Virus record (IMG/VR): IMGVR_UViG_3300029042_000255 | DNA from: a virus | Lineage: Duplodnaviria; Heunggongvirae; Uroviricota; Caudoviricetes | Strand: one strand, 5' to 3' | DNA length: 27,433 nt | Part shown: piece after piece, positions 17,050 to 26,332 of the stretch | Layout: the number at the start of each line of letters is the position of its first letter | Numbering within the stretch: the stretch's first letter is position 1 | Position numbers and translations under genes: made by a program | Notes under the pieces: model-generated | Database searches by the model: none | What the model was told of the DNA's origin: nothing | What the model saw: only the letters and a program-made list of their open reading frames with translations

Positions 17050-18009
17050 TTACTCCTTGTCCATTGCGTACAGCCCATTAACCAGAGCAAATTGTGGCAC
17101 CCCGTCCGCGATGAAAGTCGCATTAACTCCGCAGGCTTCGCGGATAGCGGGTGCCACAATCTCCGCTCCTCCACCTACAACCATCACCCGCCCGTAACCC
17201 GAAAAACCCGCCAGCGCGCGGATCACGCGTTGTTTCAGTGTTTCCTCCTTTTCACGAATAACTGCCATCAGGCTGGCGTAATGCGTGTCATTGTGGATGT
17301 GCTGGCGCAGCCAGGCTTCATCGTGGCGATGTTCGATAATGGTATTGGCGATGTGGTGACTGGTGCGCATACCGTTGGTGGCCATCACCGACAGCACGGC
17401 ATCGGCCATCAGAGAAACGCCTACGTGTGGATCGCAAAACACCTGGCTGATACCTGCCAGTTGCCCCTGAACCTTTGCCACATCCAGCGTGGTTCCGCCC
17501 AAATCCACAATCAGCAGGGATTCAAACGGACTCATGTCAGCCAGTGCTTTAAAGCCAGCCGGAATGGATTCAGGCATAACCCGCACGTTACGGATAGTGA
17601 ATGTCTCGCCGTTCTGGTACTCCACCGGGCGCATAACGTTCGCTTTTTTGCGGTTGATGTTGGCCATGTCCGGCTGTGCGTTTGTGTCGAAATACTCGCT
17701 CAGTGGCAGGGTGACAACCACATCCACCTCCTGTGGCGTGATGCCTGATTTGACCAGCGCGTGATGAATGGCAATGACATTCACATCGCTGTACTGGTAT
17801 TGCGTGTCGGTCGTCTGGACAAAGCGATCGCTGACCGGATCAAAACCATAGCGCACACCATCAAGCATGTAGTTCGCGGGCTGCGTGCCACCGAACGGCG
17901 CAGACCATTCCGACTTGAAGCTGTTCGGGCTGATGGCGTTGCGGCGTTCGCCGTTCTCAGTCCATGCCAGCTTGATGTTGGTGGAGCCGTCATCGATACA
18001 AATTTTCAT
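17050..18009 (-). CDS. parM: ParM/StbA-like actin-type ATPase (type II plasmid partition)
   Basis: 319 aa. Multiple blocks shared with R1 ParM: MKICIDDGSTNIKLAW, SPNSFK.EW, YSDVNV.AIHHAL, ERKKAN, TFTI.NV.VMPESIPAG, LIVDLGGTTLD, VMVVGGGAE, LVNGLY. Confidence 0.8.
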   Translation of the reverse strand: MKICIDDGSTNIKLAWTENGERRNAISPNSFKSEWSAPFGGTQPANYMLDGVRYGFDPVSDRFVQTTDTQYQYSDVNVIAIHHALVKSGITPQEVDVVVTLPLSEYFDTNAQPDMANINRKKANVMRPVEYQNGETFTIRNVRVMPESIPAGFKALADMSPFESLLIVDLGGTTLDVAKVQGQLAGISQVFCDPHVGVSLMADAVLSVMATNGMRTSHHIANTIIEHRHDEAWLRQHIHNDTHYASLMAVIREKEETLKQRVIRALAGFSGYGRVMVVGGGAEIVAPAIREACGVNATFIADGVPQFALVNGLYAMDKE

Positions 18010-20926: not shown

Positions 20927-21312
20927 GGCTGGTATCCCGTCACGCGCTGCCACTCCTGCGAGAAGATGACGGAAAGGCGGTTAAATTCAGTGGTGTATTC
21001 ACTCAGCGAGGCACACCCGCCAGCGGTACGATGCGCCAGCATTGCCGCAAATACGGAGGCCGGGGAGTTGTAATACGCCAGCAGGGAGTCGCCGTGTGGT
21101 GTCAGGGTGTACAGGGCCAGACCTTGTGGCGTGAAAGCTACGCGGTAACAGTCGTCCACGGTGAAATAAAGGGTGTCTGCGTTCTCCGGTTTTGTGGTGC
21201 GTGCCCGGCTGGCGCGGGCACGGAGATAAAAATCAAACATTGCCTGAAGTTTTGGGGCCAGACGGGTGTCCTGTGTGCGCACCCATTTTACGAAGTCGTG
21301 ACGGTCAATCAT
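20923..21312 (-). CDS. hypothetical protein, 129 aa
   Basis: ATG with AAGAGA SD; stop overlaps the gpA-like start. Confidence 0.5.
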   Translation of the reverse strand: MIDRHDFVKWVRTQDTRLAPKLQAMFDFYLRARASRARTTKPENADTLYFTVDDCYRVAFTPQGLALYTLTPHGDSLLAYYNSPASVFAAMLAHRTAGGCASLSEYTTEFNRLSVIFSQEWQRVTGYQP

Positions 21313-21384
21313 GCTGCAATTCTCTTTACTACAGATGTGCGAAGGCCTCCCGCCGCAAGGTGCAGGAAAGGCCCGGAACAGGAA

Positions 21385-21615
21385 TTAATGGAGTTTGTTT
21401 TGCTGCTGGATGAGATCCTGAAGAGACAGGAGGTCTTCCGCCAGATAGCTGAATACAGCGGCGCAGTAGTCGGCTGAAATAGTGCTGTTGAGTCTGTGCA
21501 ATGTGTTGGATTGCATGATAAAGGCGATGTGTGCAGCGCGGGTGAGTCTGCGATCGATTTCAGTCTGGATGTGACGACGCTCCGCGATAGCGCGGTGCTG
21601 TTTGCGGTTTGCCAT
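21385..21615 (-). CDS. hypothetical small basic protein, 76 aa (possible DNA-binding)
   Basis: ATG at 21615 with AAGAGG SD 7 nt upstream. Basic N-terminus (RKQHRAIAERRHIQTEIDRR). First ORF after a long non-coding region. Confidence 0.45.
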   Translation of the reverse strand: MANRKQHRAIAERRHIQTEIDRRLTRAAHIAFIMQSNTLHRLNSTISADYCAAVFSYLAEDLLSLQDLIQQQNKLH

Positions 21616-21794
21616 GGTGTGGCCTCTTTGCTAGTAAGTTTTGAAAACTCACCATCCAGAGCTGCGAAACTGTGGGTGGCGAGACGTACGAGGTTCGCAG
21701 TACCGGCTAGCAAAGAACCCGGCCCGACCGAAGTCGGCCCCGTACGCCCCGCCATAATTCGTGTGCGAAAAAGACGTGGCAATACAGTACGCAC

Positions 21795-21815
21795 AAAAAA
21801 ACCGCTGGCGCGGTT
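21795..21815 (-). terminator. intrinsic terminator for minus-strand transcription (stem AACCGC-GCCA-GCGGTT followed by T8)
   Basis: Plus strand reads AAAAAAAACCGCTGGCGCGGTT; on the minus strand the stem is followed by the U-tract. Confidence 0.6.
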
Positions 21816-21952
21816 GTGCGCTTTGCTAGTCAGCAGGCTGCGAAACCCGGCACCCGTTTTATGAGGTGCAGCGGAAATGTAACCTGACTGATTGCGGCAT
21901 GGCAAGCGGTTTTTTTGTGAGAACGGCATGCTAAAAAAATCCTGATACTGCT

Positions 21953-21977
21953 CCGGCCAGCGATTTTCACTGGCCGG
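21953..21977 (-). promoter_or_regulatory. GC-rich 8-bp hairpin (CCGGCCAG-N9-CTGGCCGG) 7 nt downstream of the SPFH gene stop
   Basis: Perfect inverted repeat read directly. A T7 run follows about 14 nt further on the minus strand, so not a canonical terminator. Confidence 0.4.
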
Positions 21978-21983
21978 GTTTAA

Positions 21984-22814
21984 TTACTTCACCGGAACAA
22001 ACGGAACAGCGGTATTGCTGGTCATGTATTGCGGTAGCGTGCCGTTCCATTTGTTGATTGCTTCCAGCTCCATAACGCCGGGATTCTGGCGCAGAGCTTC
22101 ACCGCGTAAACGAATGGCGTCGGCTTCAGCCTGGGCTTTTGTGCGAATGGCATCAGCCTGTCCGGCAGCTTCTGCGCGCAGCATGTTGGCTTCTGCTTCG
22201 CGTTGCTTGACTTCCTGTTCGCGTTGCAGGGTTTTCTGGTTTGCCGTGACTTTGGCGTTAATGCTGTCGATAACGGTTGGCGGATATTCCGGTTTACCGA
22301 CATAAGAGAGGCTCATGACCTGAATGCCGATGGGGGTCATCTCTTCTTGAATATCTTTAAGTGCTGAATCCAGCAGTTCAGACTTACCACCGTCGATAAA
22401 CTTATCGGTGGTCATTTTGCTGGCCAGTCGGTTGAGTGCATCGGCGATCTTCTGGCGCAGGTCAGTGTCGGTAATGTCATCCACGCCTTTGCGGTAGGTC
22501 TGAAACACTGTGGTAACTTTGGATGGATCAACCTTGTAGGCCACACCGATGTGATAGCCGATGGTTGTGCCGTCACTCATCTGAAAGCTGAACGGCTCAT
22601 CGTAGGTCTTCATTTGTTTGAAGGTCGGGAAGATGTAAACCTCGGTATTCCAGCCTGTCCAGTAGCGGCCAACGCCAACCACTTCACCGACGCCTTTATC
22701 GTCGCCCAGTTTGTTGACTTTGATGCCCACATTACCTGGTTCAACGCGATCGCAACCAACCAGCAGGATGGCGGCAAAAAGCGGGATAATCTGAAAGAGT
22801 TTGAATTTCTTCAT
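21984..22814 (-). CDS. SPFH/band-7 (HflC/stomatin-like) lipoprotein
   Basis: 276 aa. N-terminal signal peptide with lipobox (FAAILLVGC). C-terminal coiled-coil rich in RAEAAGQADAIRTKAQAEADAIR, typical of HflK/C-type SPFH proteins. ATG overlaps the upstream stop (ATGA). Confidence 0.6.
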   Translation of the reverse strand: MKKFKLFQIIPLFAAILLVGCDRVEPGNVGIKVNKLGDDKGVGEVVGVGRYWTGWNTEVYIFPTFKQMKTYDEPFSFQMSDGTTIGYHIGVAYKVDPSKVTTVFQTYRKGVDDITDTDLRQKIADALNRLASKMTTDKFIDGGKSELLDSALKDIQEEMTPIGIQVMSLSYVGKPEYPPTVIDSINAKVTANQKTLQREQEVKQREAEANMLRAEAAGQADAIRTKAQAEADAIRLRGEALRQNPGVMELEAINKWNGTLPQYMTSNTAVPFVPVK

Positions 22815-23014
22815 TGTTTGATTTCCTTGATGTACTTACTGAAAAGGCGAACAACGCCTGCCGGGTACAGCATGGCAATGAAAATGCCCAGCAATACCAG
22901 GAAGGAGCTGTCTGATGAAATCATTCGGGGGAGTAGTCCTGCATACAGAATGAGAGAAAAGAGGGCGCATACCAGCGCCCACATGTATGCGCGAAACCAG
23001 GTCCTTTCGTTCAT
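22811..23014 (-). CDS. small two-helix inner-membrane protein, coupled to the SPFH lipoprotein (NfeD/YqiJ-like partner by position)
   Basis: 67 aa with two hydrophobic helices (WALVCALFSLILYAGLL; FLVLLGIFIAMLYPAGVV). ATGA overlaps at both ends. Confidence 0.5.
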   Translation of the reverse strand: MNERTWFRAYMWALVCALFSLILYAGLLPRMISSDSSFLVLLGIFIAMLYPAGVVRLFSKYIKEIKQ

Positions 23015-23229
23015 GTCGGTTGCTCTCTTTTGTTATTCAGGAAAAAGTCAAAAACGTTATCGATGCGCATCATGAGTTCGCGCTGCATCGCTTCTGGTGT
23101 TTCTGGTTCGCCAGGTGATCCAAACCCAGCGAAGAAATCACCGATCTCGCTTTGAATGAGTTCCTTTAGTGTTGGCGGGGAGCTCAGGCGTGTGCGGCGA
23201 TGTCTGCGTGTAATTCTCCTTCTGTTCAT
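23011..23229 (-). CDS. hypothetical protein, 72 aa, Arg-rich N-terminus
   Basis: MNRRRITRRHRRTR...; AGGAG SD 9 nt upstream of ATG. Confidence 0.45.
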   Translation of the reverse strand: MNRRRITRRHRRTRLSSPPTLKELIQSEIGDFFAGFGSPGEPETPEAMQRELMMRIDNVFDFFLNNKREQPT

Positions 23230-25344: not shown

Positions 25345-25632
25345 TCAAAGACCCAGCCAGAGCAACCATGCGTCGCGGCGTTCTTTCGGCTGATCAAAAA
25401 ACGCTTTGCGCATACCTGCGTTAAATGCTGGCAGATATACCCAGTTTTCTGATGCTCGCGTCTTCACTGAACCTGGTTTCACGAAGTCAATCGTTGGTAA
25501 CTTTGCAGCGTCAATCATGGTTCTGACGGTTGATTCTTTGCGACCAATCATCTTGGCAAATAGTTGATATGGCACCGCTTCAAGTGGATATGGTGCTACC
25601 TGAATGAACCCCTCAAGCTCTGATTTGCTCAT
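25345..25632 (-). CDS. cox: Cox-type excisionase / lytic-switch regulator (P2 Cox family)
   Basis: 95 aa. VPYQLFAKMIGRKESTVRTMIDAAKLPTIDF and ENWVYLPAFNAGMRKAF...RDAWLLWLGL closely parallel P2 Cox. AAGGAG SD. First gene of the leftward early operon. Confidence 0.8.
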   Translation of the reverse strand: MSKSELEGFIQVAPYPLEAVPYQLFAKMIGRKESTVRTMIDAAKLPTIDFVKPGSVKTRASENWVYLPAFNAGMRKAFFDQPKERRDAWLLWLGL

Positions 25633-25700: not shown

Positions 25701-25744
25701 GTTGTTCTTGCATTTCTCAATTTAGAAAGGAGTATATTTCTCAC

Positions 25745-26332
25745 ATGAGAAACGTGTCAATAGACTATTCGCAAAGACTCATGAGAATGAGGGAGGCGGA
25801 AGAGTTAAGCAGACGTCAATTCTCTGATATTACAGGGATTCCACTTAATACTATTCAGAAATATGAAACAGGTCATCAGCCTGCTAGAGCAGAGTTGGTT
25901 GAGCGAGTTTTACAGGTTGATAGGTTCAAAAAATACGCGCTTTGGCTTATGACGGGGCAAGTGTCTCCAGATAATGGGCAAATTGAACCCACGCCATTGG
26001 CTGGTAGTGGATCTGAAGTGGTATCTGAGCTTGGAGAAAAACTCCGCCTGATTCGAGAGGCAGAGGGATTGTCGCGTAGAGCGATGGAAGAGGTGACAGG
26101 GGTATCTCAAAACAATCTCAAAAATTATGAAATATTGGGAAGAATGATACCTGGAGAAACGCTACTCCTGATTTTGAATCATCCCCGTTTTCGGAAGTAT
26201 TCGGATTGGGTAATGTTTAATCAAACTAATGCTGCGACGGGGCAGATTGCTCCGCCTCTCTCTCTTGATGGCTTCTCCAGTTTGGAGGGCGATCAGAGTT
26301 CAACCGAAACAAAACAAAAATTACCCCGCTGA
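25745..26332 (+). CDS. immunity repressor, P2 C-type, internally duplicated (two HTH units in one polypeptide)
   Basis: About 196 aa from ATG at 25745 (track start 25697 is TTG; SD AAAGGAG is 12 nt upstream, so the start is uncertain). Two homologous halves, each ending in a P2 C-like motif: (i) DRFKKYALWLMTGQVSPDNGQIEPTPLAG, (ii) PRFRKYSDWVMFNQTNAATGQIAPPLSLDG. Located upstream of int and divergent from cox. Confidence 0.7.
   Translation: MRNVSIDYSQRLMRMREAEELSRRQFSDITGIPLNTIQKYETGHQPARAELVERVLQVDRFKKYALWLMTGQVSPDNGQIEPTPLAGSGSEVVSELGEKLRLIREAEGLSRRAMEEVTGVSQNNLKNYEILGRMIPGETLLLILNHPRFRKYSDWVMFNQTNAATGQIAPPLSLDGFSSLEGDQSSTETKQKLPR

Follow-up and report, generated by a model that had tools for sequence, protein, structure and literature searches.

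The subject of this work is a pair of overlapping genes carried on the minus strand of the virus record IMGVR_UViG_3300029042_000255 (Caudoviricetes), one encoding an SPFH-domain lipoprotein of 276 residues and the other a 67-residue membrane protein with two transmembrane (TM) segments. The window, by which we mean the whole stretch of 27,433 nucleotides that was analysed, is a P88-like prophage (Peduoviridae, Xuanwuvirus), and the two genes form an accessory cassette within its early operon (Table 1). The smaller protein is a dedicated partner of the SPFH protein and not, as the gene arrangement might lead one to expect, an NfeD protein.

Table 1. The SPFH cassette and the features around it (open reading frames, ORFs; helix-turn-helix, HTH). 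Positions are those of the window; residue numbers are given in the feature column.
Feature	Position	Strand	Basis
SPFH/Band_7 lipoprotein gene, 276 aa	21984-22814	-	ORF, PF01145, phrog_200, AlphaFold2 model, Foldseek
Parts of the SPFH protein: signal peptide and lipobox LVGC (Cys21, Asp at +2); core ~20-176; coiled-coil helix 179-243; C-terminal motif			
Two-TM partner gene, 67 aa	22811-23014	-	ORF, ATGA overlaps, phrog_1130, family alignments, fusions
Accessory cassette (partner gene, SPFH gene, 3' hairpin), ~1.1 kb	21920-23035	-	blastn against pair-less sister prophage
G+C-rich 11-bp hairpin, 6 nt past the SPFH stop	21953-21977	-	RNA folding; inside the inserted segment
U7 run, 13 nt beyond the hairpin	21933-21939	-	
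Upstream ORF, 72 aa	23011-23229	-	
Pe-type early promoter, TTGACA-18-TATACT	25731-25760	-	11/12 consensus matches
cox	25345-25632	-	
Immunity repressor with two HTH domains, 211 aa	25697-26332	+	
isrK RNA	21795-21869	-	Rfam, 65.5 bits
C4 antisense RNA	21672-21759	-	Rfam, 82.8 bits
Derepression-family ORF	21385-21615	-	
Replication endonuclease, 955 aa	18086-20953	-	
ParM/StbA actin-like plasmid-segregation gene, full length	17050-18009	-	

The N-terminus of the SPFH protein reads MKKFKLFQIIPLFAAILLVGC and then DRVEPG. It has the make-up of a bacterial lipoprotein signal, for which we required a basic n-region, a hydrophobic h-region and [LVI][ASTVI][GAS]C within the first ~25 residues: here MKKFK, LFQIIPLFAAILLV and the lipobox L-V-G-C21 at residues 18-21. 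The Band_7 model (PF01145) is matched over its full length (model positions 2-176 of 176, E 5.7e-31, 108.4 bits for a cut-off of 23.6), and the profile of phrog_200, annotated as 'lipoprotein', is matched as well (E 3.3e-112). The AlphaFold2 model built from an alignment of 37 sequences has a predicted local distance difference test score (pLDDT) of 79.9 (a single-sequence model, with a pLDDT of 46, was discarded) and consists of an alpha/beta core (residues 20-176) followed by a single helix of 65 residues (179-243). The conserved C-terminal tail (259-276) is modelled with low confidence in this monomer, which would be compatible with an element that packs between subunits. When the model was compared with the PDB using Foldseek, HflC/HflK came first (7vhq, E 4e-13), accompanied by prohibitin, erlin, stomatin, flotillin and QmcA, all with a probability of 1.00 and with alignments that span nearly the whole protein. 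A lipoprotein with an SPFH core and an HflK/C-like coiled-coil tail is what the original prediction, made from the letters of the DNA, had placed at this locus, and the predicted structure does match the protomers of SPFH cages.

This does not make it an HflK or HflC. A sequence search among solved structures recovers only HflK chains (best E 1.2e-4) and one prohibitin-2 fragment, and the NCBIfam scan gave sub-threshold matches to HflC, HflK and FloT only, with 25.7 bits where the HflC equivalog (TIGR01932) demands 134.4 and 23.5 where HflK (TIGR01933) demands 159.4; the 67-residue partner had no match in that scan. From the fold matches, together with scores that far under the cut-offs, it follows that the SPFH protein is a cage-type protomer of a separate subfamily and not an orthologue of either. 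The cassette contains one SPFH ORF, and a scan of 14 neighbouring proteins gave no second Band_7 match. The lipobox Cys21 and the C-terminal W256, G258 and P261 are invariant when 19 diverse homologues are aligned, the latter within a family signature of the form EKW(N/D)GxLP...PF.x.K. Public records still name this protein 'serine protease', 'putative transposase' or 'transposase fusion protein'; a Pfam scan detected neither a protease nor a transposase domain in it.

The partner gene is joined to both of its neighbours by 4-base ATGA overlaps, with the SPFH gene at AAACAATGAAG and with the 72-residue ORF upstream at CCGACATGAAC, an arrangement that had been foreseen. An AAGGA Shine-Dalgarno sequence lies ~10 nt upstream of the SPFH ATG, and the overlaps are compatible with translational coupling. 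Residues ~10-28 and ~37-55 of the 67-residue protein are hydrophobic, both of its ends are basic, and the short loop between the segments, LPRMISSDSS, is polar. The protein is predicted to keep both termini in the cytoplasm and the loop in the periplasm. It matches the profile of phrog_1130, annotated as 'membrane protein' (E 3.7e-22). A word-indexed search with the 67-residue protein returned close relatives from E. coli only, and the distant partners were found by reading the DNA beside SPFH homologues. Partners share the signature G..(L/V)P-x-(L/M)-(I/V/F)-S-(A/S)-x-(D/S)...V.xG and little else: the Pro is invariant and the Ser and Gly are present in at least 90% of them. The signature falls on the loop predicted to be periplasmic and on the beginning of the second TM segment, and corresponds in the window protein to L-P-R-M-I-S-S, with Pro29 and Ser33, and to Gly43.

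The pair had been likened to bacterial SPFH/NfeD operons. This likeness holds for the arrangement of the genes, which are adjacent, co-oriented and overlapping, but not for the partner itself, and we rejected its identification as NfeD: Pfam finds no NfeD domain (PF01957) in the 67-residue protein nor in 21 members of its family, and hhalign gives a probability of 1% when the family is compared with E. coli YbbJ. Matches to RseC_MucC (16 bits) and YrhC were under the cut-off and were taken as noise from hydrophobic segments.

The pair is phage-encoded, as had been claimed. Escherichia phage P88 carries both genes in the same genomic position, with a gp12 that is 99.6% identical to the SPFH protein and a gp11 that is 92.5% identical to the partner. 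The possibility that the pair is a core gene conserved in all P2-like phages, which would have undone the original prediction, was rejected: this replication endonuclease is carried by 1319 complete E. coli genomes and the full P2-type pair by 145, and there are sister prophages that have no pair. Any version of the SPFH gene is found in 711 of 5426 complete E. coli genomes, and about half of its places there are plasmids of ~90-155 kb, a size that matches the P1-like and ~110-kb phage records carrying the gene. The subfamily is present in 767 phage records, and a profile search of 1.84 billion representatives recovered 567 family members (representatives at 50% identity) with E < 1e-30.

A partner homologue lies directly upstream of the SPFH gene in 79 of 80 close viral loci. 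A two-TM ORF also abuts or overlaps the SPFH start in P1-like phages, a lambdoid prophage, the jumbo phage SE_PL and the N4-like phage Paxi, the same arrangement is seen in Burkholderia phi1026b, Pseudomonas F_MX560 and Myxococcus Mx1, and the partner is displaced by one gene or by ~420-430 bp in Hena1, EspYZU14, PaCe and phiEa104. The pair, with the loop motif P-x-L-I-S, extends over P2-, lambda-, P1-, N4-, FelixO1-, rV5-like and jumbo phages. Diverse metagenomic viral contigs have a two-TM ORF directly upstream in 25 of 37 cases, nearly all with the motif. Searching with the partner (tblastn) gave 24 phage records, and in those checked (P88, P1-like, Pastis, S6, MY01, SABI) the SPFH gene was either adjacent or the phage also had an SPFH match. 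Since nearly all close loci and also far more distant phages and bacteria carry the two genes together, their pairing is not due to chance.

In lambdoid contexts the mature SPFH protein is 93% identical to ours and the adjoining partner only 46%. As a separate observation, DNA similarity of 91-93% links the part encoding the mature SPFH protein to lambdoid and phiP27-type copies and ends at ~22754, almost exactly at the codon of the lipobox Cys, so that the signal peptide and the partner gene make up a distinct and much more divergent segment. This break reflects either a mosaic joint or a very fast evolution of the membrane-embedded parts.

Nature has also fused the two proteins. Strict criteria identify at least 12 of the best 150 family representatives, and inspection by eye ~20, as single ORFs (320-390 residues) that start with the two-TM domain and its motif and continue through a K/R-rich linker and a third hydrophobic segment (anchor or lipobox) into the SPFH domain. 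One such fusion recurs, on 3 contigs that come from 2 samples, and the surroundings of the fusions are phage-like, with RtcB, a D5-type primase and a PDDEXK exonuclease as neighbours. By the Rosetta-stone argument, they argue for a 1:1 physical association of partner and SPFH protein. Most of them keep the internal lipobox Cys (P0168, P0169, P0171, P0179, P0183 and others; L236, 6001-7149; L237, 2643-3641), and it is a possibility that they are lipidated and cleaved into two polypeptides after translation.

Bacterial loci tell the same story, with the two-TM partner present in 38 of 43. Within the Dyella/Rhodanobacteraceae/Lysobacterales group this amounts to 34 of 35 loci, all 34 with the motif GP-x-LISA, and in about two-thirds of these the flanks are syntenic with the locus of Dyella halodurans (L189). 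The pair is thus a syntenic chromosomal locus across many Dyella species (L188-L224, from Dyella and other Rhodanobacteraceae; for instance L188, 7796-8870), and it is vertically inherited there. Its neighbours are a BlaI/Penicillinase_R-type regulator, a hemerythrin, a ribonucleotide reductase and a MacB-type transporter, that is, housekeeping genes and not those of a prophage or a defence island. The module must therefore work in a cell without any phage factor, and the Dyella locus may be a cellular source, or sink, of the phage cassette.

These observations bear on the idea that the pair helps to time lysis or to export lytic enzymes, with the partner acting as a holin or antiholin and the SPFH scaffold organizing holin rafts or Sec-dependent secretion. 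Such a role has been suggested for MbpS/MbpV of Kayvirus; in Staphylococcus phage K the SPFH homologue lies between lysK and tgl, beside a holin-like protein with one TM segment, and our two-TM partner does have the gross shape of a class II holin. However, no Pfam holin family is matched by the partner (21 family members scanned), its gene lies in the early operon between a winged-HTH gene and a replication gene rather than in a lysis cassette, SPFH genes of other Gram-negative phages sit among early or nucleotide-metabolism genes, and a chromosomal, non-phage copy exists in Dyella. We therefore see very little chance that the pair serves lysis.

The limits of the cassette are sharp. Comparison by blastn with the sister prophage of E. 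coli O157:H7 SS17 (L096) shows homology up to 21919 and again from 23036, with 25 bp between these points in L096; because homology breaks and restarts in this manner, partner, SPFH gene and 3' hairpin can be taken as one discrete segment. Another sister prophage (L097) also has no pair, and P88 (L001) is collinear across the cassette. The hairpin at the distal end is stable (-23.4 kcal/mol, z -3.1, equalled by none of 200 shuffles). A canonical intrinsic terminator after the SPFH gene was considered and rejected, as the consensus scan did not call one and the run of U residues is too distant; the hairpin is possibly a weak terminator or a 3' stabilizer belonging to the cassette.

The pair had been placed at the end of the early operon, and in this the original prediction was mistaken, since the pair lies inside it. 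The early region begins with integrase and the two-HTH repressor on the plus strand, continues from Pe on the minus strand with cox, DUF4761, DUF4754, small ORFs and a winged-HTH gene, then with the 72-residue ORF, the partner and the SPFH gene, and goes on in the same orientation with isrK/C4, the Derepression-family ORF, a 129-residue ORF, the replication endonuclease and ParM. Upstream of the cassette, a crude consensus scan of this strand gave a single strong sigma-70-like site, the Pe-type one located between the divergent repressor gene and cox, and we infer that it is the source of cassette transcription. The same scan detected no promoter belonging to the cassette, and the ~21 bp of cassette DNA ahead of the partner ATG are too short to hold one.

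As for the location of the proteins, a lipobox is present in 133 of 146 enterobacterial homologues, with Asp at +2 in 106 and C-D-R in 103; the window protein has Asp22 at +2 and Arg at +3. A lipobox followed by Asp suggests that the lipoprotein is retained at the inner membrane. Some members, from phages of Gram-negative as well as Gram-positive hosts, lack the Cys and have a TM anchor at the N-terminus, which indicates that the cytoplasmic membrane is the location common to the family. A further set of enterobacterial homologues (P0052, P0053, P0057, P0058, P0114, P0115) has Trp, Tyr or Phe in place of the lipobox Cys (VGY/W/F-DRVEPG), and these would stay attached through an uncleaved signal anchor instead of a lipid. 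The fusions, in turn, fix the topology that the separate proteins should have: a partner with both termini inside, an anchor running from inside to outside, and an SPFH domain outside. With the lipobox and Asp at +2, the TM-anchored variants, the inner-membrane partner and the fusions considered together, the most economical reading is that the SPFH assembly would be extracytoplasmic and anchored in the inner membrane, on the same side as HflK/C.

Taken together, our results point to a self-contained and horizontally mobile two-gene membrane module that would build a periplasmic SPFH assembly and be expressed early, and we consider this structural and temporal model to be reasonably probable. 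What the data show directly is the fold, the lipobox, the gene overlaps, the limits of the cassette, the co-occurrence of the partner and the fusions, whereas location, cage, 1:1 contact, early expression and client are inferred. Within the model, the 276-residue product would be exported, lipid-modified at Cys21 and held at the outer leaflet of the inner membrane, with its SPFH domain and long helix in the periplasm. With its 65-residue helix and its conserved C-terminal tail as contacts, it would oligomerize, as other SPFH proteins lead one to expect, into a ring or dome fencing a patch of inner membrane. The 67-residue product would be its dedicated 1:1 subunit, a helical hairpin that begins and ends in the cytoplasm and whose sole exposed and best conserved part, the periplasmic P-x-L-I-S loop, would touch the membrane-proximal face of the SPFH protein or its anchor. 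Hairpins lying beneath the ring could then supply the transmembrane 'palisade' that HflK/C and stomatin make with their own N-terminal helices. Lacking a recognizable promoter and presumably read from the repressor-controlled Pe, the cassette should act early in lytic growth or induction and not in the quiescent lysogen. The target is probably a conserved component of the host inner membrane rather than a phage protein, because the pair is also present in strictly lytic phages and vertically inherited in Dyella. As to purpose, our guess is that the assembly might enclose and modulate an inner-membrane machine or membrane-protein quality control, for which FtsH is the precedent, stabilizing the membrane proteome of the infected cell.

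Several points weigh against this model. We found in the literature neither a functional study of a phage SPFH protein nor a description of the partner, and the choice of a client, be it FtsH or quality control, is drawn purely by analogy. The two-TM partner is not universal, as shown by the different one-TM neighbour of MbpS in Staphylococcus phage K. A crude promoter scan could miss an internal or non-sigma-70 promoter, which would permit expression in the lysogen. In E. coli lipoprotein sorting, Arg at +3 may weaken the retention conferred by Asp at +2. Also, the +2 residue of many non-enteric members is Ser, Tyr or Glu, and it is possible, judging from these residues, that some members are targeted to the outer membrane. 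Finally, PM0222, an HflK/C-like protein of a Pasteurella multocida prophage, is reported to be made in the lysogen, to occur in outer-membrane vesicles, to activate TLR1/2 and to influence virulence (PMC9872710). Its example underlies the alternative of a surface or vesicle lipoprotein acting in lysogenic conversion to alter the interaction between host and bacterium. Nevertheless, PM0222 is likened to our protein by description only; lytic and environmental phages (of Myxococcus, Caulobacter and Stenotrophomonas) and Dyella argue for a cell-autonomous role in the membrane; and Asp at +2 and an inner-membrane partner speak against surface exposure here. Lysogenic conversion is accordingly a highly improbable function for the pair.

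Returning to the periplasmic assembly, its resemblance to HflK/C raises the question, which the original prediction had also posed, of whether the phage uses it as a mimic aimed at FtsH. Such a cage would capture or displace FtsH/HflKC and alter the turnover of phage regulators or membrane proteins, with the outcome that the decision between lysis and lysogeny is biased or phage proteins are protected. Of the solved structures, HflK is the closest in sequence and HflC/HflK the closest in fold, the topology proposed above is that of HflK/C and not that of the cytoplasmic QmcA or flotillin, and the pair sits in an early operon. Indeed, a link of phage SPFH proteins to FtsH and lysogeny has already been put forward, as speculation, for homologues in Pseudomonas and Burkholderia phages, together with its counter-argument: the family is present in many strictly lytic phages, for which a lysogeny decision is irrelevant (PMC8540360, PMC10269572). 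Besides, the HflC and HflK scores lie far below the equivalog cut-offs and there is a single SPFH gene here where HflK/C is heteromeric, so that we regard a mimic of HflK/C directed at FtsH as rather unlikely. A broader proposal is that of a device for host takeover, used early and by many phage families, in which a lipid-anchored periplasmic SPFH cage comes with its own two-helix TM subunit. This is a speculative extension of the model to which we give only a small chance. If true, the cage would enclose FtsH or a complex for DNA entry or transport, so as to reprogramme membrane proteostasis or bar competing phages, and the chromosomal pair of Dyella would be the cellular ancestor of the device.

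Defence against other phages, likewise raised by the original prediction, can also be envisaged, as a complex in the envelope that stops DNA entry or envelope penetration by later phages. The early Imm and Sp proteins of T4 and the lipoprotein Llp of T5 are precedents for such superinfection exclusion. An accessory cassette patchily distributed among prophages and phage-plasmids would be in keeping with it, as would the presumed location at the inner membrane and periplasm; early expression in virulent phages would suit the keeping out of competitors, and Vi01-like phages list the SPFH gene beside an annotated superinfection-exclusion gene. Yet PADLOC-DB 2.0 has no match for the SPFH protein, and for the partner just a 14-bit match of 21 residues to PDC-M18B. 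With no promoter of its own detected, the cassette is probably silent in the lysogen, the Dyella pair lies among syntenic housekeeping genes and not in a defence island, and we found no experimental report in the literature. On balance, exclusion or anti-phage defence is an unlikely role, if a conceivable one.

The surroundings of the cassette hold some observations of their own. Directly downstream, weak promoter-like sites accompany both isrK and C4, and a terminator-like hairpin is present at isrK; together with the Derepression-family ORF they look like an antirepressor module of the P1/P7 immI type or the Gifsy IsrK type, here in a P2-like prophage. A 206-residue ORF in the same place (21309-21929, minus strand) was dismissed as almost certainly spurious, as it overlaps both Rfam RNA genes and has a Ser/Arg/Thr-rich translation of low-complexity appearance. 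The ParM/StbA gene follows the replication endonuclease as it does in P88, and is unusual equipment for an integrated P2-like prophage. The immunity repressor of the window has 211 residues and the annotated C protein of P88 has 93; the window prophage therefore differs from P88 in its immunity region and has the same accessory cassette.

The phage SPFH family is known and annotated, and the pair in the window is an ordinary member of a large phage family. What appears to be undescribed in the literature that we searched is the two-helix partner that is not NfeD, its loop motif, the fusions, the periplasmic lipid-anchored topology and the syntenic cellular copy. Structural biologists now give much attention to SPFH scaffolds (HflK/C, prohibitin, stomatin, flotillin). 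With a dedicated and sometimes fused partner, a presumably periplasmic facing and probable behaviour as an early lytic cassette, what had been a vague 'SPFH moron' becomes a defined complex of two components. If its client were FtsH or the route of DNA entry, the phage would control the inner membrane of its host in a new manner; if it were neither, the pair would still be a compact model of how an SPFH cage is anchored and partnered. The interest lies in a common and structurally topical family with a testable model.

The closest known counterparts are phrog_200 and phrog_1130 and gp12 and gp11 of Escherichia phage P88: here the relation is one of direct membership, with no difference in sequence to separate the window proteins from families that carry no assigned function. 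MbpS/MbpV of Kayvirus (ORF28 and ORF29 of Staphylococcus phage K) also combine a phage SPFH protein with an overlapping gene for a small membrane protein, at ~25% identity to the window protein. However, MbpS has an N-terminal TM anchor and no lipobox and is sited in the lysis region, and its neighbour, with a single TM segment and a long charged tail, is devoid of the P-x-L-I-S motif. Two bacterial systems can be likened to the window proteins by description only. YdjI/SamI of B. subtilis, with YdjG/YdjH, is an SPFH-type scaffold that needs small membrane partners other than NfeD, but it is cytoplasmic and works with PspA; FliL forms a periplasmic SPFH-like ring around an inner-membrane machine, in its case flagellar. 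SPFH-NfeD operons (QmcA-YbbJ of E. coli, 8z5g; YqiK-YqiJ; PH1511-PH1510 of Pyrococcus) share with the cassette a co-oriented and often overlapping pair of genes, and their small membrane protein is thought to be an integral subunit. They differ in that our partner lacks the NfeD OB-fold domain and has no similarity to YbbJ, and in that QmcA faces the cytoplasm and aligns to our SPFH family over its C-terminal half only (hhalign 94.5%). The HflK/HflC cage of E. coli, which faces the periplasm around FtsH (7vhp, 7vhq, 7wi3), has in common with the window protein the SPFH core, the long helix, the C-terminal tail and, presumably, the periplasmic side of the inner membrane. Identity is 17-19%, and the two differ in how they are built into the membrane: a pair of K and C subunits, with N-terminal TM helices, in E. 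coli, and a single lipid-anchored SPFH protein with a separate two-TM subunit in the phage.

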